A DNA stretch of 28,461 nt. Source: Candidatus Faecivivens stercoripullorum (GTDB lineage Bacteria; Bacillota; Clostridia; Oscillospirales; Ruminococcaceae). Shown piece by piece: positions 12,146-22,173 of this stretch. The notes under the pieces are model-generated. The model was not told the origin of the DNA, did no database searches, and saw nothing but the letters and a program-made list of their open reading frames with translations. The stretch's first letter is position 1. Each line of letters opens with the position of its first letter. The stretch covers positions 1-28,461 of the forward strand of contig DVLW01000203.1 of the NCBI GenBank assembly GCA_018715285.1, given 5' to 3'. A program made the position numbers and the translations under genes.

Positions 12146-12236
12146 GGAGATGTATCGAAGTGGTCGTAACGAGAACGACTCGAAATCGTTTTGTCAGTAA
12201 AATGGCACGTGGGTTCGAATCCCACCATCTCCGCCA
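12146..12236 (+). tRNA. tRNA-Ser (anticodon CGA)
   Basis: Acceptor GGAGATG/CATCTCC, anticodon arm AACGA-CTCGAAA-TCGTT, long variable arm, T-arm GTGGG-TTCGAAT-CCCAC, discriminator G, encoded CCA. Confidence 0.96.
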
Positions 12237-12274
12237 GTTAAGAGATACCATGTAACAACGTGGTATCTCTTTTT
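12215..12274 (+). repeat. Direct repeat copy 1: tRNA-Ser 3' end plus terminator
   Basis: 57/60 identical to 12460-12519. Confidence 0.95.
12239..12274 (+). terminator. Intrinsic terminator of tRNA-Ser
   Basis: AAGAGATACCATG-TAACAA-CGTGGTATCTCTTTTT. Confidence 0.85.
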
Positions 12275-12293
12275 ATGTCCGCAAAACCTCTGT

Positions 12294-12470
12294 GTGGGAT
12301 TCGAACGGGAGCAGGCCCGGTGTCCGGGCGAACTTGATGACGAGGTTTGTACACGCCTTTGGTGCTCAGCAACTCAGGCGTTTCTTCCACGGTCATACGG
12401 TTCTTTCATGACAGTCCGGTGGGCTGTCAGAGCTGCGACCTGGCTCGCCCGCAGGCGAGTCGAATCCCAC
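12294..12470. mobile_element. Putative non-autonomous miniature element bounded by tRNA T-arm-derived inverted repeats
   Basis: GTGGGATTCGAAC (12294-12306) is the exact reverse complement of tRNA 12213-12225 and pairs with TCGAATCCCAC (12460-12470). It has several internal hairpins and its core recurs at about 19.96 kb. Mobility is inferred. Confidence 0.55.
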
Positions 12471-12519
12471 CATCTCCGCCAGTTAAGAGGTACCATGTAA
12501 TAACGTGGTACCTCTTTTT
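12460..12519 (+). repeat. Direct repeat copy 2: att-like duplicate of tRNA-Ser 3' end plus terminator
   Basis: TCGAATCCCACCATCTCCGCCAGTTAAGAG is exact for 30 nt, then the terminator carries three substitutions. Confidence 0.95.
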
Positions 12520-12622
12520 TTACATGCGTCAGCCATCTGATAACAGGCGAACCATTCCCTATCGATACTGGAATGCAAAATGACGCGGAACCTTTTATTT
12601 TATTGCAGAAAGGTGATTTCAG

Positions 12623-13548
12623 ATGAGTGATCTTTTTTTCGCGCTGGCAAACAGATTCTCCGAACAGCTCGGACAAAGCCGGTAATCTCCGTCCATACCG
12701 AACCTATGGCACCGGATGAACAGGGATATTCCGGTGCACGGCTGCAACGGCTGCTCTGCACAGACGAGGATGGAAAAACCGTCCGTTTTATCTGCAAGCA
12801 GACCACACTGCGCGAAATAAACGTCATGCAGGCATTGACCGACCAAAAACGCGGACATACACCTCTGAGCTGTTCTCTGCCGCAAGAGAACGACCAGCCG
12901 GGATGGTTTATCATGCAGGATATCCGCTCACAGGAAAAACTGCCGGACGATCTGAGGCAATGGAAACGGATGGTGGCCTCTTCACTCGCCGATATCCACA
13001 CCGATAATCTGGGCGGCAATTCCATCCCGCAGCTGCCCACAGCAGACGAAAACTACTGGAAAGAAATTACCTCAAAGATTTCCCTCAGCCATTTTTCCGA
13101 AATCTGCAAAAATAACGATGCCTTTGCCCGTAAATATGCCGGTATGCTTCCGTTACTCTGCCGACGCGCTGAAACATTCGTTGCAGACATGACCGCAATG
13201 AGCCGTGATACCGGCTGTATGACGGTTACCCACGGTGATTTGCAGCAGAATGACGGCGATCACGTGCGAATCTGGCAAGGCAGGCCGATGATTATTGACT
13301 GGGGATTTTGCCGGTATGCACCGTTTTATATCGATCTGGTCGACTATTTCACGCCCGATGAATCGATGGTTTATTGGGAAGAACTGCGCCGGAGAGGCGT
13401 TTTACTGAGCAGAGAAGACTTTGCCTGCCGGTTTCATGCGGCATCTCTCTACCCGGCATTTATCTACCTCTATCCTGCATTGATGCACTTTCTCCGTGGG
13501 GATGACACCCGGCTGGAGAGACTGCTTGCCATCTTCCGCAACGGATGA
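12623..13548 (+). pseudogene. APH/choline-kinase-family phosphotransferase, apparently frameshifted near the 5' end
   Basis: HGDLQQND and IIDWGF motifs in the 12706-13548 frame. The RBS-linked ATG at 12623 (AAAGGTGA) stops at 12683; one added base joins the frames. An intact shorter protein starting at 12706 is not excluded. Confidence 0.65.
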
Positions 13549-13559
13549 CAGACACCATT

Positions 13560-14317
13560 TTATACCTGCACCACGCCGTCCTGATCGGTCACAATCAGAG
13601 CACCCTCTGAAAGACCAAAGGCGGCTATTTCATTAAACGGGTAGATTTTTTCGCCGATTTTCTGCATACCGATCATCATCACACCGTCCGCATCAAAGCT
13701 GTACCAGAAGGTACCGGATGAGCCGGTGATTTTACGCCAGGCGCTTTTGACCGGCTGTCCATTCTCGTAATAATACCATTTTTCCCCGATCTGTTTCCAG
13801 CCATTTTCCGAAGCCGTCAGCCGCTTGTTGACCTCGGCGGCGATATACGGGAATTTGCTTTCGAGATACGGTCCGGGACAGGCGTCGCCGCAAACCATTT
13901 GTGCATGGTCAGGTTGCCGTTTTTATCGCCGGTGAAATTCAGCTTTTCGATATTATTCCGGCGGCAGATATCGGTGCACAGCTCAATCAGCTTTTCCATC
14001 GCCGTATCCGATACCTTCCAGTCAGGCGCACCGGTCAGGTTTGCAACCTCAATGGTAATCGCCTGATGGTCGTTTTCAGGATTAGAGCTGCACCAGGAAC
14101 GGTCTTTTTCCTCGACATACATGCCGACCCTGCCGTCATTATCCACCGCGTAGTTAGAGCTTGCCTGCCGGGAAGTTTTGGCAAACATAGCGCCGCACTC
14201 CTCGACGGTCATAAATCCAGCCATATGATGGATGGTAATCTTTTTGATTGCGCTGTTGCGCGGGCTGGTTTTGTTGGGACTGAGGATGGTATAATCCACA
14301 AGTTTACTGTTACTCAT
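13560..14317 (-). pseudogene. Phage-endolysin-like N-acetylmuramoyl-L-alanine amidase (Amidase_2) with cell-wall-binding repeats, split by a 1-nt deletion
   Basis: ITIHHMAG...ASSNYAV...AITIEV...HKWFAAT in one frame continues as ACPGPYL...GWKQIGEKWYYY...WYSFDADGVM in the next. Break at about 13885; AAAGGAG RBS before ATG 14317. Confidence 0.85.
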
Positions 14318-14389
14318 GAGATACTCCTTTTCAGATTCCCATCGGCTTCCCATTATATGTCCACTACCGGAAATATGTCCACCATCAGC

Positions 14390-15229
14390 TCATTCCAGAT
14401 AAAACACCGTCACTTCCGGCGGCACGCCAAACCGGACAGGATAATGAGATGTCCCGATACCGCGGTTGACATACAGCGCGGTATTTTCATTTAGCTGATA
14501 AAGCCCTTTCTGATACTTTTCTGTCAGCGAGGTTGTCAGCGGCGGCAAAAACGGGACGTCAACCTGTCCGCCATGACTGTGACCTGCCAGCATCAAATCA
14601 AAGCCGTCCTCCGCATACTGGTCGGCCCGATCAGGCTCATGCAGCATCAGAACTGAACAGGGATACTCATCCGGCGGATACTGCGCCAAAACCGGCTGGA
14701 TATCCGGTTCTCCCAACAGCGCGTCATCCAGACCAGCTAAAAGCAGCTGTTCCCCATTGTCAGTGGAAATCGTCACCGCCTCATTTTCAAGCAGCGCAAA
14801 ACCGGCTGCTTCCATAATCTGGCTGTACTGACGCGCCGCACCGCCGCCATAGTCACGGTTTCCCCAGATGGCGAATTTTCCATACCGCGGCTGAATCTGG
14901 GAAAGCTGAGCGATGAAATTTTCATCGTCATGAAATGCCGCAAAGTTTTCGTACAGGTCACCGGTAAACAGCAGAATATCCGGTTCAAGGCTGATAATCC
15001 TGTCCACCACCTTCTGAAAATGCCGGGTAGTATAGCTCTCACTGATCTGGATGTCTGAAACCTGTACAACCGTCAGCTGTTCTGAAAGTCCGGTATCCAG
15101 TGAAACCTCTTCCGTCCGGACGATGTACGGCTCGATTTTCAGTCCGTACCAGATACATCCCACCGCACACAGAAATATCATCAGCAGAATGCCAGCCGTC
15201 CATTTGATTACTTTTCCAATCTTTCTCAT
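14390..15229 (-). CDS. Calcineurin-like metallophosphoesterase (YkuE-like) with N-terminal TM/signal segment
   Basis: SDIQ, TGDL, GNRD, LMLHEPD, GHSHGGQ, NRGIG motifs. Start ATG 15229. Confidence 0.88.
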   Translation of the reverse strand: MRKIGKVIKWTAGILLMIFLCAVGCIWYGLKIEPYIVRTEEVSLDTGLSEQLTVVQVSDIQISESYTTRHFQKVVDRIISLEPDILLFTGDLYENFAAFHDDENFIAQLSQIQPRYGKFAIWGNRDYGGGAARQYSQIMEAAGFALLENEAVTISTDNGEQLLLAGLDDALLGEPDIQPVLAQYPPDEYPCSVLMLHEPDRADQYAEDGFDLMLAGHSHGGQVDVPFLPPLTTSLTEKYQKGLYQLNENTALYVNRGIGTSHYPVRFGVPPEVTVFYLE

Positions 15230-15239
15230 ACCATCACCG

Positions 15240-16037
15240 TTACCGCTCCGCTTGGATTGAACACCTGCTTTCATGCCGTGCGATCTCGGACTTAAAGTCA
15301 CGGCAGATTACATTTCCGGCCATCTGCTGCGGCTGTACCTCACAGCATACCGCCGCTGGGATACCATCCGGTGCGGTTGCAGCCGGCGTTCCGTCCGCTG
15401 CAAAAACCGTACTTCTGCCAAGAAAACTGGCATCCATTCCCGGCATCGATTCATTTCCGACCCGGTTTGCGACGATCAGCGGAGTGAGGTTTTCGATTGC
15501 CCGTACCCGTGCAATCATCTGGCTGGTTTCGCCGCCGAAGTTAGCCGGGACACAGAAAAGTTCGGCACCTGCCTGCAACTGTTCCCGCGCAATTTCCGGG
15601 AACCACAGATCAAAGCAGATCTGTACACCGATGGTCAGTCCATCCAGCTGAAAAACGGTATTCTCGGTTCCAGATGCAAACAGCTTCTTCTCAAAGTCGG
15701 ACAGATGGATTTTCCGGTATTTTCCGATATACCTTCCTCTGCTGACTACGGCGGCGGTATTATAGATCAGCCCATTTTCCATCTCCGCCACCCCAAATAC
15801 CATCGAACACCGGTACCTTTCCGACAGCTGCCGCATCGCTTCAACCGTCCTTCCGCCGGGAACCGGTTCCGCGACCTCTGCCAGCGCTTCCCGGTTTGGG
15901 AAAAGATATCCTGTGCCGCAAAGTTCCGGCAGTACCGCCAGACCATCTTCAAACCCGCTCAGCTGATTTTCCACCATGCGGATATTTTTATCCAGACTGC
16001 GGGAAACATCGTACTGAATAAACCCTGCTTTCATCAT
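15240..16037 (-). CDS. Carbon-nitrogen hydrolase (nitrilase superfamily)
   Basis: Catalytic triad E (VLPELC), K (YRKIHL), C (ICFDLWFPE); RAIEN and NRVG motifs. Start ATG 16037. Confidence 0.9.
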   Translation of the reverse strand: MMKAGFIQYDVSRSLDKNIRMVENQLSGFEDGLAVLPELCGTGYLFPNREALAEVAEPVPGGRTVEAMRQLSERYRCSMVFGVAEMENGLIYNTAAVVSRGRYIGKYRKIHLSDFEKKLFASGTENTVFQLDGLTIGVQICFDLWFPEIAREQLQAGAELFCVPANFGGETSQMIARVRAIENLTPLIVANRVGNESMPGMDASFLGRSTVFAADGTPAATAPDGIPAAVCCEVQPQQMAGNVICRDFKSEIARHESRCSIQAER

Positions 16038-16127
16038 CAAAACACATCCTGTTCTTTTCGCATATAAAAAGATGATCCTCAGGCGGCCAGCTATTTTGAA
16101 CTGCCGCATGAGGATCATATTCTGTTT

Positions 16128-17327
16128 TCAATTCGTTTGAGAGGAAACCGTACAGCCGCCATTTTCCCGGCGCTTAATCCGCCACAGCCATTCGGTCATC
16201 AGCAGCATTGCTCCGGCAATGCACAGCAGAATCACCGGATAGGGCGCCATTCCGAACTTTCCGACTACAGCACCGACAATCGGCGGCGTAAAGGTCGAGC
16301 CGACATACGCACTCGCCATCTGAACGCCCATAATCGACTGAGAAGCATCTCTACCGAAGTTGTCCGGCGTCGAATGGATGATACTCGGGTAAATCGGCGC
16401 ACAGCCAAGCCCGATCAGCAGCAGTCCGGCACAGAGGACAATTTCCGGAGCAGGTACCATCATCAGCACCATACCGCCGAGAATCACAATCTCACCCATC
16501 CGGATGAGCGTCTTATCTGTCAGCCGTCCCGCGATAAATCCGCATCCACCGCGTCCAAGGGTAATCCCGAGGTAGAACAGCGAAATCCATGCCGCAGCCT
16601 TTTCGGGCGAAACACCTCTGTATCCAACCATATAGCTGCTTCCCCAAAGTCCGACCGCTGCCTCAACCGAGCAGTAACAGAAAAATGCGATCAACACCTG
16701 TCTGGCACCCGGCATTTTAAGGATCTCCGGGATAGAACGGGAATGTCCTTCCACTTTTTCGCCGTCCCACTGAGCGGTAATTTTCTTTTTCCACATCGGC
16801 AGCGACAAAAACAACACAGCCGTCAGTACAAACTGCACGATACCAATTGCCCGGTACCCTGCCGGCCATCCCATGCCGCGTGTCAGGCAGAATCCCATCA
16901 CATACGGTCCAGCCGTCGCGCCCAGTCCCCACATACAGTGCAGCCAGCTCATATGCCGCGCCTCATAATGCAGCGCGACGAAGTTATTCAGTGCCGCGTC
17001 GACGCTTCCTGCACCCAGACCATACGGCAGTGCCCACAAAAACAGCATCCAGTATTCCCTTGTGACCGAAAAACCGATCAACGCCGCTGCTGTCATTGCG
17101 ACGCTGACAGCGGTCACCTTTCCGGTACCAAATCTGCGGATCATCCGGTCACTGAGCAGGCTGGATATAATGGTACATCCCGCAATCGTCATCGATACAG
17201 CGCCAGCCGCGCCGACCGGAACGCCCATTTCCGGCTGCATACTCGGCCAGGCGGCGCCGAGAAGTCCATCTGGCAGTCCCAAGCTGATAAAGGACAGATA
17301 GATAATTGCCAGCAATAATGAAACCAT
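16128..17327 (-). CDS. MFS transporter
   Basis: About 12 hydrophobic segments; motif A-like LSDRMIRRFGTG; second-half AGRLTDK. Confidence 0.9.
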   Translation of the reverse strand: MVSLLLAIIYLSFISLGLPDGLLGAAWPSMQPEMGVPVGAAGAVSMTIAGCTIISSLLSDRMIRRFGTGKVTAVSVAMTAAALIGFSVTREYWMLFLWALPYGLGAGSVDAALNNFVALHYEARHMSWLHCMWGLGATAGPYVMGFCLTRGMGWPAGYRAIGIVQFVLTAVLFLSLPMWKKKITAQWDGEKVEGHSRSIPEILKMPGARQVLIAFFCYCSVEAAVGLWGSSYMVGYRGVSPEKAAAWISLFYLGITLGRGGCGFIAGRLTDKTLIRMGEIVILGGMVLMMVPAPEIVLCAGLLLIGLGCAPIYPSIIHSTPDNFGRDASQSIMGVQMASAYVGSTFTPPIVGAVVGKFGMAPYPVILLCIAGAMLLMTEWLWRIKRRENGGCTVSSQTN

Positions 17328-17433
17328 GATTTTCTCTCCCGTCTTGCAATACTATTGCTGAAAGCCGCCGGTTTATTTCCCCACTTTTATGTATGAGAGG
17401 TGGAAAAAGTGGCTGCCGCAGCCCATTTATCTG

Positions 17434-17462
17434 ATTATAACACGGAGCAACTGCCGCCGCAA
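17434..17462 (-). promoter_or_regulatory. sigma-A promoter for the MFS operon
   Basis: TTGCGG-17 bp-TATAAT with extended -10 TG. Confidence 0.55.
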
Positions 17463-17516
17463 TCGGGATAAGGTGATTTTCATATTATGGAAAAACACGG
17501 GCTTTGCGCACCGCCA

Positions 17517-18059
17517 TCATTTTTTCCGGTTCAGCTTTAGAACCAGTTTTCTTTCGTCTGCGATTTGCTGCAAGATACCGGCTGCCAGCTTTGCCCTGTC
17601 TTTTTGCGGCATTGTACCGGCGTTATCCTGCGTATCGATCAGTGCCATCGCCCACTGCAAATCCGGCAGTTCCATCAGGTTGACCGCCAGTGAGAACAGA
17701 GTCTTTTTGCGGCCGTCGTTATATTCCGACAACAGCCGGTGCAAAATCTCCACCTTTTCCCGCTGTACCACATTATACGCTTCAATCCCATCCCGTGCCG
17801 CCAGTGCCAGATCATCCATCTGACGACGGTGGGTAATAAAAGAATCATACTGACCCGCATCCCGGTATTTTTCACATGGAAATTCCCGGCATTCAAAGCA
17901 GTATTCCACCCCATCATGCGCAAGACTGCACCGCGCAATTGCACAGGACTGGTTGCCATTGCCGCATCCGCCGCAGTAATCCCCAATCCGCATCGTGCAA
18001 AGCCCGCAGTTCAGACCACAAAGGGAAAGCAGCTGGTTTTTGCGAACAAAACCTTTCAT
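17517..18059 (-). CDS. DUF3795-like Cys-rich protein
   Basis: CGLNCGLC...CGGC...CAIARC...YCFECREFPC pattern followed by a helical C-terminus. Confidence 0.8.
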   Translation of the reverse strand: MKGFVRKNQLLSLCGLNCGLCTMRIGDYCGGCGNGNQSCAIARCSLAHDGVEYCFECREFPCEKYRDAGQYDSFITHRRQMDDLALAARDGIEAYNVVQREKVEILHRLLSEYNDGRKKTLFSLAVNLMELPDLQWAMALIDTQDNAGTMPQKDRAKLAAGILQQIADERKLVLKLNRKK

Positions 18060-18071
18060 CCTGCACCCGCC

Positions 18072-19436
18072 TTATTGACCGTTACCGGACGGCTGTGCAG
18101 CGGATGCCGCATTCCAGAAATCATTTTCCGCAATAATCGGAATCCCAAGTTCCCGCGCCTTTTCGACCTTATTGCCGTACCCACGCACCCAGCGGTCACT
18201 GCCAAGGCTGCCGACAATCAGATACTTCACCGATTTAGTCACCGAACCACGCACTACACCGCCAAGGTCACGGATTTTGTCTTCTGCTTCTTCCCGGCTT
18301 CCGGTGCGGAAATCACCGGTTACCGCAAATACGGCAGTAAAGTCGATGGTTTCCAGGTGGCTGTAATATTCACTCGGCAAGCCACGTCCTGATTTTCTGC
18401 GGACAGGACGCTGGCTTTTTGCAGGAGAAAGGTCGTAGCGTGAAATAAAGGTATCCATGTCCCGCAGTTTCCCGAGTTCGACAAACAGTCCGTAACATCC
18501 TTTTGCATCACTCAGGGCGTTGTGATGGTCGAGCGGTATATTATAGTAAGCACACAGGGTGTTGAGCCGGTGATTTGGAAGGCTTGGCAGCAGTTTCTGT
18601 GCAGAACGGCAGGTACAGATATATTCCACCTCACCCAGCCGGAGGTTATAATTTGCCAGCGTCGATTTAAGGAAAAACAAATCAGCGGCTGATGCCGAAT
18701 GTGCTACCAGCACACTGCCCTCAAACCATTTTCGGATTTCCTTCCAGACTTCCGGGAAGGTTGGTGCCGTGGCTGCCATTTCATCGGTGATACCATGGAT
18801 AGCAAGGTTTTCCTTCTGCATCGGACGCTCAGGATTGACCAGTGAATAATATTCCGTCATTCTGCCGTCGCTGTCCTGATGCAGCAGCCCGATTGCGCAG
18901 ATCTGACCGGTCGAGTCGGCAGTCTCGCAGTCAAAGAATGTATAGGCGTGTTTTCTGCGCACCGTCATGGACGGTTTTATCATCCCGATACAGGTTTCCC
19001 AGTCGCGGTATTTTCCCTTCAGTTCCCAGAAAATCCCGGCCAGCTGTTCCGGCTCGGTAATATTTTCCGTTAAAGGTGCATAGGCAGCTTTTGCCAGTTC
19101 CCGGATACTGAGGGTGAACATGACCGGCGGATACAGTCCCCGGCGTTCAAGTGCAGCCGAGATAGCTGCCGCCTCATTTGCCGGACAGACGACAAGGCTG
19201 TGGGTAAAATACCGCCGTACCTCTCCCCAGACCTGTTCCAGCTGCGGAGCCTGTTCCAGCTGTTCACGATTAAGACCGGCCTGTTCCAGCTGACGGGCAG
19301 GCGGTGTCTGGGTTGGACTGATGAGAGAACCGTACCGGCGCACCTGGTCACCGTCCTGATGGAATAGTGACAGCGAGTATAGTTCCGACTTTGAACCGGT
19401 TCCGAAAAAACCGGCAGTAATTGCTGTTAGCTGCAT
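18072..19436 (-). CDS. DEDDh 3'-5' exonuclease with an N-terminal degenerate exonuclease copy and a C-terminal BRCT domain
   Basis: Active domain FFDCET...HSASAAD...HHNALSDA; BRCT FAVTGDF...GGVVRGSVTKSVKYLIVG...KARELGIPIIAENDF; N-terminal domain aligns with the second domain. Confidence 0.87.
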   Translation of the reverse strand: MQLTAITAGFFGTGSKSELYSLSLFHQDGDQVRRYGSLISPTQTPPARQLEQAGLNREQLEQAPQLEQVWGEVRRYFTHSLVVCPANEAAAISAALERRGLYPPVMFTLSIRELAKAAYAPLTENITEPEQLAGIFWELKGKYRDWETCIGMIKPSMTVRRKHAYTFFDCETADSTGQICAIGLLHQDSDGRMTEYYSLVNPERPMQKENLAIHGITDEMAATAPTFPEVWKEIRKWFEGSVLVAHSASAADLFFLKSTLANYNLRLGEVEYICTCRSAQKLLPSLPNHRLNTLCAYYNIPLDHHNALSDAKGCYGLFVELGKLRDMDTFISRYDLSPAKSQRPVRRKSGRGLPSEYYSHLETIDFTAVFAVTGDFRTGSREEAEDKIRDLGGVVRGSVTKSVKYLIVGSLGSDRWVRGYGNKVEKARELGIPIIAENDFWNAASAAQPSGNGQ

Positions 19437-19438
19437 GG

Positions 19439-19843
19439 TTACATCCTCCGTCCGGCGGCGATTTTATCAAGTATTTCCCGGTCAGCCGGGCAGAAGGTGA
19501 ACTGTTCCAGTTCATCAGGAGCGGCCCAGCACATTTCCATATGCTCCAGCCGTCTGGGGACACCTGAAAGGATGGACGCAGTATAGACCTGCATACTCAG
19601 GTGCATTTCAGGGTAATCATATTCGACCTGTGCGAACAGTTCCCGTGGGCAGATTTCGACCGCCAGTTCTTCGCGGCATTCCCGGACGAGAGCCTGCTCG
19701 GGAGTTTCGCCGGGTTCGATTTTACCGCCGGCAAATTCCCACATACCAGCAAGAGTCTTTCCCTCAGGGCGGCGACAGATCAGCAGTTTACCGTCCTGTT
19801 CGATCATAGCCGCGACAACCTGTACTTTTTTCTTTTCCATCAT
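19439..19843 (-). CDS. mutT: MutT/NudG-like Nudix hydrolase
   Basis: VVAAMIEQDGKLLICRRP...WEFAGGKIEPGETPEQALVRECREEL. The symbol is by family resemblance only. Confidence 0.85.
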   Translation of the reverse strand: MMEKKKVQVVAAMIEQDGKLLICRRPEGKTLAGMWEFAGGKIEPGETPEQALVRECREELAVEICPRELFAQVEYDYPEMHLSMQVYTASILSGVPRRLEHMEMCWAAPDELEQFTFCPADREILDKIAAGRRM

Positions 19844-19880
19844 CACAACATCCCTTCACCGTCAAAATTCCCATATCTGT

Positions 19881-19910
19881 ATTATATACCACTCCCACCA
19901 CATTTGACAA
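19881..19910 (-). promoter_or_regulatory. sigma-A promoter for the mutT operon
   Basis: TTGTCA-18 bp-TATAAT, immediately downstream of the repeat element. Confidence 0.55.
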
Positions 19911-19911
19911 G

Positions 19912-20202
19912 GTGGCGTGTCGCCACGGACTTGTTCGCGGCGGAATGCTTCCGCTGCCTTGATGCAAAGGTCCGTTCACGCCGCTGGAGCTCAGCACTCG
20001 ACGGCTTCGACCCCGGCGCAGTGCCTGCGCTCCTTGATGCCGAAGTGATACCACGCTCCAAAAGGTGGCAAACCAACGCTTCGATCACGCACCAACATAA
20101 AGAGATTGTACGCACACACTATCCATCTGTTCACGCGAGCGCAGAACGAGTACCAATTTTCCGCAGATTTATGCCCACATGCTGTCCTGTGGACAGTTCA
20201 CG
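19912..20202. repeat. Intergenic palindromic repeat cluster (same family as the tRNA-Ser element)
   Basis: Four 3-nt-loop hairpins, two CTTGATG-N12-CACGC motifs 75 nt apart, and homology to 12333-12371 and 22146-22173. Confidence 0.8.
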
Positions 20203-22033: not shown

Positions 22034-22173
22034 CGCGAACAAGTCAGCAGTTAAAGGCTTTAAGTTCCATTTTGCACAACGTAACAGCCGCGACCACTCA
22101 CGTTGTTTCTTTTACGACAGAGGCCGTCGGAACGCGGCCGACCAACGCGAACATGTCCGCGGCGACACGCCGC
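22034..22173 (+). repeat. Intergenic repeat-family copy between padR and its partner gene
   Basis: CGCGAACAAGTC at 22034-22045; 22146-22173 matches the reverse complement of 19912-19939 at 25/28. Confidence 0.75.

Follow-up and report, generated by a model that had tools for sequence, protein, structure and literature searches.

The described systems nearest to the repeats treated here are composite or palindromic elements of bacterial genomes. In the part of Croucher et al. (2011, PMC3049150) drawn on here, the BOX elements of Streptococcus pneumoniae are presented as composite boxA-boxB(n)-boxC repeats. Repetitive extragenic palindromic (REP) sequences occur in bacterial interspersed mosaic elements (BIMEs) and as REP doublets forming hairpins (REPINs), and the relevant sections of Nunvar et al. 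(2010, PMC2817692) and of Bertels and Rainey (2011, PMC3116915) treat them together with the REP-associated tyrosine transposases (RAYTs); REP palindromes end, on one side, in a tetranucleotide (GTAG or CGTC) that is conserved, according to the excerpt used of PMC3733652. MITEs (miniature inverted-repeat transposable elements) are defined, in the same part of PMC3049150, as AT-rich elements with terminal inverted repeats and target-site duplications. The subject of this analysis is a window of DNA, meaning the whole stretch of 28,461 nucleotides (nt) analysed from Candidatus Faecivivens stercoripullorum (assembly GCA_018715285.1, contig DVLW01000203.1), in which a preliminary description made from the sequence alone had pointed out three copies of a hairpin followed by the motif CTTGATG-N3-ARGT-N5-CACGC (CTTGATGNNNARGTNNNNNCACGC). 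These sites are probably modules of a lineage-specific, non-coding, composite and non-autonomous interspersed repeat that is comparable in function to the BOX elements of pneumococci or the BIMEs of enterobacteria. The family is new, or apparently undescribed, and its kind is familiar.

On the + strand of the window the motif matches at 12333, 19958 and 20033, and each match is preceded, at a distance of 0-3 nt, by a GC-rich triloop hairpin with a TGT or TGC loop, as first described; the ungapped 39-nt match between the first two copies (12333-12371 vs 19958-19996; 30/39, 77% identity) was likewise recovered. Chance resemblance, or local duplication of the three sites, would account for the small copy number visible in one window and for nothing else, and this explanation is refuted: no match is expected by chance, none occurs in 100 dinucleotide-preserving shuffles, and the family counts 65 copies here, with a further 15-54 in each of four other species. 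The genome is a 2.0-Mb metagenome-assembled genome (MAG; 266 contigs, 84% complete), labelled G000 below, of which the window is contig C24. The strict motif occurs four times genome-wide and its relaxed form, CTTGATG-N12-CACGC, eight times, with every match inside the same repeat family. Iterated nhmmer searches of the MAG give 124 matches in 84 loci, and longer queries delimit 89 islands of 36-1049 nt that add up to 29.2 kb, or 1.46% of the assembly, with 22 of them reaching contig ends. What had been taken for a dispersed family of three is a genuine dispersed family, of about 65 copies rather than three, and constitutes one module of a larger composite element.

The modules of this element are arranged in a fixed and polar order, (H-X / H-Y)n, Z, core, T. 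H is a GC-rich hairpin of 6-7 bp with a TGC, TGT or AGC loop, at least seven recurrent stem variants and a hairpin-specific linker of 3-4 nt (TGCC, GGAC, TCCC or TGAC). Y is a body of ~65 nt that contains the motif and GCTCAGCA, and X is a second body of ~65-70 nt (CTTGTTCGCG...GAGCGAACGCG); the same H variants precede X bodies as well as Y bodies. The MAG contains 65 H+Y units, each ~80-95 nt long, as counted with a covariance model built from H+Y (R1), and 73 X units as counted with nhmmer. The core, of ~300 nt, contains many hairpins and has two alternative middle domains and an optional insert of three hairpins; at least 16 of its copies are full ones. T is a hairpin, CTGTCC-GGT-GGACAG, found 24 times in the islands. 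Within this grammar Y leads to Z and Z to the start of the core, and the chain runs on into Z, core and T in about 16-24 loci; the adjacency counts are HX 57, HY 50, ZK 23, KE 17 and ET 18. All modules of an island lie on one strand in 79/84 islands, where H hairpins recur in direct orientation every ~75-100 nt. A minisatellite-like array of five tandem Y units of ~94-97 nt is seen at G000 C221:1522-2112.

All islands are intergenic, and their GC content is 55% vs 50% for the genome. They contain 105 perfect H hairpins of 6 bp and 3 nt and, with 1.5% of the sequence, hold 39% of the genome's GC-rich hairpins of this geometry. No element-borne gene was found in the family, and the genes sandwiched between islands in G000 are ordinary ones, with no transposase among them. 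Relative to flanking genes, the islands lie in the orientations same/same (26), opposite/opposite (16), divergent (12) and convergent (6), and the bias of 26 vs 16 is not significant.

The preliminary description held that structure is conserved over sequence, and for the H hairpin this is borne out. Its helix is 95.7% paired over 27 units, with changes on both sides in five of the six pairs; the covariation score is unmatched by any of 500 shuffles, and no slid register comes near it. H is also the sole helix of the unit that covaries and the sole conserved helix that RNAalifold returns from 64 Y units. A second helix closing the loop around GCTCAGCA (43-46/65-68), for which a compensatory change from GCCT/AGGC to GCCG/CGGC had been claimed, fails in the larger sample: it is paired in 56.5% of cells over 27 members, and its registers differ between the two window copies. 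An alternative outer helix, TTGATGCCG/CGGCTTCGA, was rejected as well (50.5% of cells paired). The fixed spacing of the motif does hold in the three window copies, without being a constraint. Among the 64 Y units, CTTGATG is found in 17, CACGC in 42, GCTCAGCA in 54 and ARGT after CTTGATG in seven, and because the parts of the motif are present in a subset of units in this manner, ARGT, CACGC and the 12-nt spacing are a matter of ungapped homology within subtypes, not of structural constraint.

The window contains three islands, namely H+Y at 12315-12407, the series H, H+Y, H+Y, Z, T without a core at 19912-20196, and H+X on the - strand at 22088-22173, with the following features:

12290-12519, + strand: tRNA-Ser-linked unit that hosts copy 1; it combines a T-arm copy in inverted orientation with a pair of hairpins and a second tRNA 3' end with terminator.
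12315-12329, + strand: H hairpin of copy 1, GCCCGG-TGT-CCGGGC, 3 nt upstream of the motif, as read from the sequence; its stem is among the at least seven recurrent variants.
12330-12407, + strand: linker GAA and Y body of copy 1 (CTTGATG...CACGC...GCTCAGCA...); R1 matches 12314-12396 (E 4e-20).
19910-19881, - strand: promoter TTGTCA-18-TATAAT, adjoining the solo H module.
19912-19936, + strand: solo H module, GTGGCG-TGT-CGCCAC, GGA, CTTGTTC, abutting the -35 box of that promoter.
19937-20014, + strand: H+Y unit, copy 2; R1 matches 19940-20014 (E 2.6e-17), and the unit is also seen in the alignment.
19937-19957, + strand: hairpin of copy 2, GCGGCGGAA-TGC-TTCCGCTGC, 0 nt before the motif, with the body beginning at CTTGATG at 19958.
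20015-20094, + strand: H+Y unit, copy 3; R1 matches 20015-20094 (E 7.6e-21).
20016-20030, + strand: hairpin of copy 3, GCGCAG-TGC-CTGCGC, 2 nt before the motif.
20097-20166, + strand: Z module (AAAGAGATTGTACGCACACAC...GCGCAGAACGAG...), aligned with the Z of 16 full copies, in which it leads into the core.
20182-20196, + strand: T hairpin CTGTCC-TGT-GGACAG, a module placed after the core wherever a copy is full; this locus has no core.
22088-22173, - strand: H+X unit (GCGGCG-TGT-CGCCGC, GGA, CATGTTCGCG...) of the same family, among the 69 full-length X units of 73 matches.

The body of copy 3 is a variant in which GGT-GGCAAACC replaces GCTCAGCA, and this variant recurs in C214, C91 and C192.

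The distribution of the family is narrow. When 15 Candidatus Faecivivens species were searched with R1, a covariance-model search that the preliminary description had suggested, H+Y was found in five sister species: 65 copies in G000, 54 in G005, 25 in G014, 23 in G001 and 15 in G009; it is absent from the ten others. Across the 150 other genera searched in the bacterial family to which this genus belongs, R1 gives two marginal matches, neither of them convincing (E-values of 5e-4 and 9e-4), and the core has no match in the phages, plasmids and viral contigs searched. With Rfam 15, whose families include tRNA, tmRNA, ROOL, GOLLD and HEARO, at gathering and E-value thresholds, nothing relevant to the repeats is matched in both window loci and 12 family loci, where the matches are limited to tRNA-Ser, tRNA-Pro and one unrelated RNA. 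The last is a skipping-rope RNA (RF02924; 53.7 bits, above the gathering threshold) on the minus strand of G000 C219, at locus positions 96-191. ARAGORN, run on the whole genome, calls neither a tRNA nor a tmRNA at the cores, and no description of this repeat family or of repeats in Faecivivens was found in the literature.

One piece of the core has a wider occurrence. Its first hairpin, together with the CAGGGC-NNN-GCCCTG that follows, is found by itself, many times over, in species without the other parts of the family. Many such sites are present in G003 and G015, and one of the species concerned belongs to a neighbouring genus. At the one locus read (G007 C36) the pair adjoins a gene end in the manner of a bidirectional terminator.

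Comparison of orthologous loci shows that whole modules are gained, lost and exchanged between species, frequently right at a stop codon or where a terminator or promoter begins or ends, a polymorphism for which the preliminary description had proposed a check. At locus C72, directly after the same stop codon, G000 has H+Y, G014 has H+X and G001 has H+X+H+X, and six other species have a plain terminator and no module. Here G000 retains the 3' end of the X unit of G014, and therefore the module has been replaced in situ. At locus C118, H+Y stands flush with the TAA in G000 vs a stretch of 15-19 nt in G001 and G009. The 19.9-kb locus of the window has both flanks in common with G005, but a 23-nt H indel and a different set of modules separate the two: G005 lacks exactly 23 nt at the solo H (19912-19936), and its ortholog of the locus carries a core. 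At the tRNA-Ser locus G009, G001 and G014 have 6 nt (TACTGA) where G000 has the 93 nt of 12315-12407. About one quarter of the left junctions of islands abut a stop codon, and others abut the T-run of a terminator or a -35 box. Neither terminal inverted repeats nor a target-site duplication were seen at the two filled/empty sites examined (loci C118 and C72).

A third variant of the core, ...GCGAAATCTCC-TACGCAGTGCGC...GGGTGAATTT...AAAGAGGGG...GGGCTGCCCCT, is found on contigs C149 and C161 of G000 and is the one that fills the 19.9-kb locus in G005. Its end lies immediately upstream of phoU and, likewise, of a gene for a Cys/Met pyridoxal phosphate (PLP) enzyme.

In 19 distinct copies of the core from three species, the 3' domain forms a 14-bp helix closed by a 7-nt loop, YTCGATG; 11 of the 14 pairs change on both sides, 99.8% of the cells are paired, and 25 G·U pairs are found vs a single non-standard cell. 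The stem comes to 12-13 bp if the outer pair is taken as weak, and judging from the geometry of tRNA this stem and its 7-nt loop would match an acceptor/T-arm minihelix in size. Over the whole core, the pairs predicted on both strands include 14 G·U vs two A·C, and all island hairpins together have 61 G·T vs 26 A·C, in copies that are not independent of each other. Since G·U is far commoner than A·C, one strand (the + or motif strand) folds, either as RNA or as single-stranded DNA.

In another explanation, the repeats belong to a structured RNA family. The arrays would then be leader or trailer modules of a multi-copy RNA of ~300-400 nt, consisting of the core and its tRNA-like minihelix, and the solo units would be elements of 3' untranslated regions (3' UTRs) that act at the level of RNA, for instance by affecting the stability of the transcript or its processing by RNase P or other RNases. 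The fold of the core on the + strand only, with its compensatory minihelix pairs, would be expected of such a family, as would the co-orientation of modules with the core throughout. On the motif strand, 11 sequences have G·U and five have A-U as the seventh pair of H. Of the solo H+Y units, 6/11 abut a stop codon and lie, in sense, between the stop codon and the gene's terminator, and are therefore co-transcribed with the upstream gene. At least 14 RNA-labelled runs, which come from several studies, also have contigs that contain words of the core, although carry-over of DNA is possible with contigs; those RNA-library contigs that cover parts of 20.1-20.8 kb of the window have no readable strand, ends or level, and so are not used as evidence of transcription.

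Set against this, the core has neither a conserved promoter upstream nor a terminator downstream, and the Y body was rejected as a mobile sigma-70 promoter (-35 TTGATG or TTGCCG), since 4/64 units reach 9/12 matches vs 1.4 in shuffles. The orientation of islands to neighbouring genes is mixed, and the 19.9-kb island of the window has a terminator on one side and, on the other, a promoter belonging to the opposite strand. The H hairpin, for its part, has G·U and A·C in balance (10 vs 8), and Y has no conserved helix besides H. From one copy to another, moreover, hairpin loops of the core insert change into their own reverse complement (TTT/AAA, CTT/AAG, and TT/AA at the centre of a palindrome), which is a sign of loop inversion at the DNA level. 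A structured RNA family is accordingly a possibility that we regard as unlikely, though worth keeping in view.

A different partner had been suggested at the outset, namely a Y1 enzyme of the HUH type acting on single-stranded DNA. The repeats would then be REP-like or PATE-like substrates of a RAYT, of an IS200/IS605 TnpA or of an integron-type recombinase. A short GC-rich hairpin followed by a conserved short motif, in high-copy extragenic units, would suit such an enzyme, as would the gain and loss of solo 23-nt H modules, and a one-strand excess of G·T would fit an intermediate of single-stranded DNA. G000 also has two PF01797 genes, PF01797 being the Y1 HUH family that includes RAYT. Both genes are IS200-type, however, and lie on AT-rich contigs (C163 and C136) with flanking hairpins unrelated to the repeats. 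No match to PF01797 was found in the genus's other 14 species, which include the repeat-rich G005 (54 units), G014 (25), G001 (98% complete, 23 units) and G009 (15). Moreover, the tag is missing from all 105 H hairpins, whether looked for as GTAG or CGTC upstream or in the form CTAC or GACG downstream, neighbouring hairpins are co-oriented instead of alternating or forming inverted pairs, and TnpB was not found in G000. With no Y1 gene found in the other species, no tag and the hairpins co-oriented, the REP/RAYT reading fails its defining tests, as the IS200/IS605 one also appears to do, and a HUH or integron-type substrate appears very improbable; among the 15 species, the Y1 enzyme proposed in the preliminary description was found in G000 alone, where it is unconnected with the repeats.

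The two IS200-type genes may be recent arrivals or contaminants from binning. Searches of G000 for an IS110 transposase and for a reverse transcriptase found neither, and the IS91 Y2 family (PF04986) has no match in the five repeat-bearing species, a search that is unvalidated because control genomes were equally silent.

The reading of the H+Y sites as modules of a composite, non-autonomous interspersed repeat is thus the one that we consider probable. Under this interpretation the family would be a non-autonomous selfish element, copied and reshuffled in trans. The agent could be an enzyme, acting on single-stranded nucleic acid, that reads the hairpin together with the C-T/A-T/G-G/T-A/T-T stretch next to it; alternatively, the hairpins could be sites of template switching or of recombination by the host. 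The effect on the host would be mostly passive, in the form of extra structure in 3' UTRs and spacers. Several observations weigh against this interpretation. The case for mobility comes from patterns of presence and absence, which deletion combined with gene conversion could also yield, and at C118 the 15-19 nt left in the relatives resemble the 3' tail of Y, so that deletion fits as well as insertion. A stretch of 167 nt comprising the 3' end of a core, a T hairpin and H+Y is 98% identical between G000 (C192:8260-8426) and G005 (C249:8677-8843), in a setting where the flanking genes are ~84% identical, which suggests recent exchange, concerted evolution or selection. The strand-specific excess of G·U in the core is unexpected for a repeat that is purely double-stranded DNA. 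Finally, no mobilising enzyme was found, nor terminal inverted repeats or a target-site duplication; as the MAG is 84% complete and in 266 contigs, a repeated transposase gene could have gone unassembled.

The surroundings of copy 1 bear on a further, more speculative interpretation. In the window the tRNA-Ser(CGA) gene is followed by a segment of ~320 nt (12146-12595 in all), and G005 lacks the part from 12275 to 12595. A 60-nt direct repeat (12215-12274 and 12460-12519, 95% identity) gives the tRNA a second 3' end, which carries a terminator whose stem shows a compensatory change. The two hairpins of the tRNA-Ser-linked unit are a T-type one, GACAGTCC-GGT-GGGCTGTC, and then CTCGCC-CGCA-GGCGAG. 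After the same tRNA, G009, G001, G014 and G007 have one or two tandem units of ~185 nt with the same composition (inverted T-arm copy, two hairpins, tRNA 3' end and terminator), and the 3' 113 nt of the unit recur elsewhere in several species. RNA-library contigs join 12314 to 12408, as do relatives without H+Y at this site, and these contigs probably come from such relatives.

On this interpretation H-X and H-Y would be satellites of a multi-copy element, so far undescribed, whose active form is the single-stranded, ornate core of ~300-400 nt, either as a novel class of structured, high-copy RNA that tRNA enzymes process or as a protein-less mobile element with an intermediate of RNA or single-stranded DNA. 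The stem of 12-13 bp in the core, closed by a loop of 7 nt (YUCGAUG), has the geometry of a tRNA acceptor/T-arm minihelix, and the tandem tRNA-Ser 3'-end units would belong to the same tRNA-mimicking biology. We regard this as rather doubtful. If it is true that the core is a transcribed, tRNA-mimicking RNA in dozens of copies, it would constitute a new class of ornate RNA.

Whatever their mode of spread, the repeats account for 1.5% of the genome or more and interrupt its assembly, as seen from the islands at contig ends, and their annotation would improve both MAG assembly and the calling of gene boundaries in a genus common in the poultry gut. Among known systems, the MITEs Correia, RUP and ERIC share with the Faecivivens family a non-coding, intergenic and highly base-paired character and polymorphism in presence and absence, and they too may occupy the space from a stop codon to a terminator. 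They contrast with islands that are 55% GC and that have no terminal inverted repeats or duplication at the two sites examined. REP sequences and BIMEs are likewise short, GC-rich, high-copy extragenic palindromes with covarying stems, which form mosaics and are specific to species groups. Within the sections used of PMC2817692, however, the palindromes of BIMEs alternate and REPINs are inverted doublets, in contrast to the 79/84 co-oriented islands found here; the Faecivivens hairpins also lack the GTAG/CGTC tag, and no RAYT was found in the four other repeat-bearing species. Since the definitions of REP/RAYT elements and MITEs, as worded in the cited parts of PMC2817692 and PMC3049150, do not apply, the Faecivivens repeats belong to neither class. 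Mosaic repeats of hairpins can evidently thrive and swap modules without a RAYT-type enzyme, which poses an open problem for such elements.

The likeness to BOX is one of kind, with no claim of membership. Faecivivens units differ in opening with a covarying triloop hairpin of at least seven interchangeable stem variants, and the full element differs in including a core of ~300 nt with a tRNA-like minihelix. ISSpn2 has been proposed for BOX, whereas the Faecivivens repeats have no terminal inverted repeats resembling those of a resident insertion sequence (IS). Both families, in turn, are polar composites whose distinct modules keep to one order and whose middle modules vary in number, and both reach high copy numbers in one species group while being nearly absent from related genera. 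Extensive secondary structure and frequent co-transcription with neighbouring genes are common to the two, and BOX elements, like the repeats described here, are regarded as parasitic and slow in their turnover.

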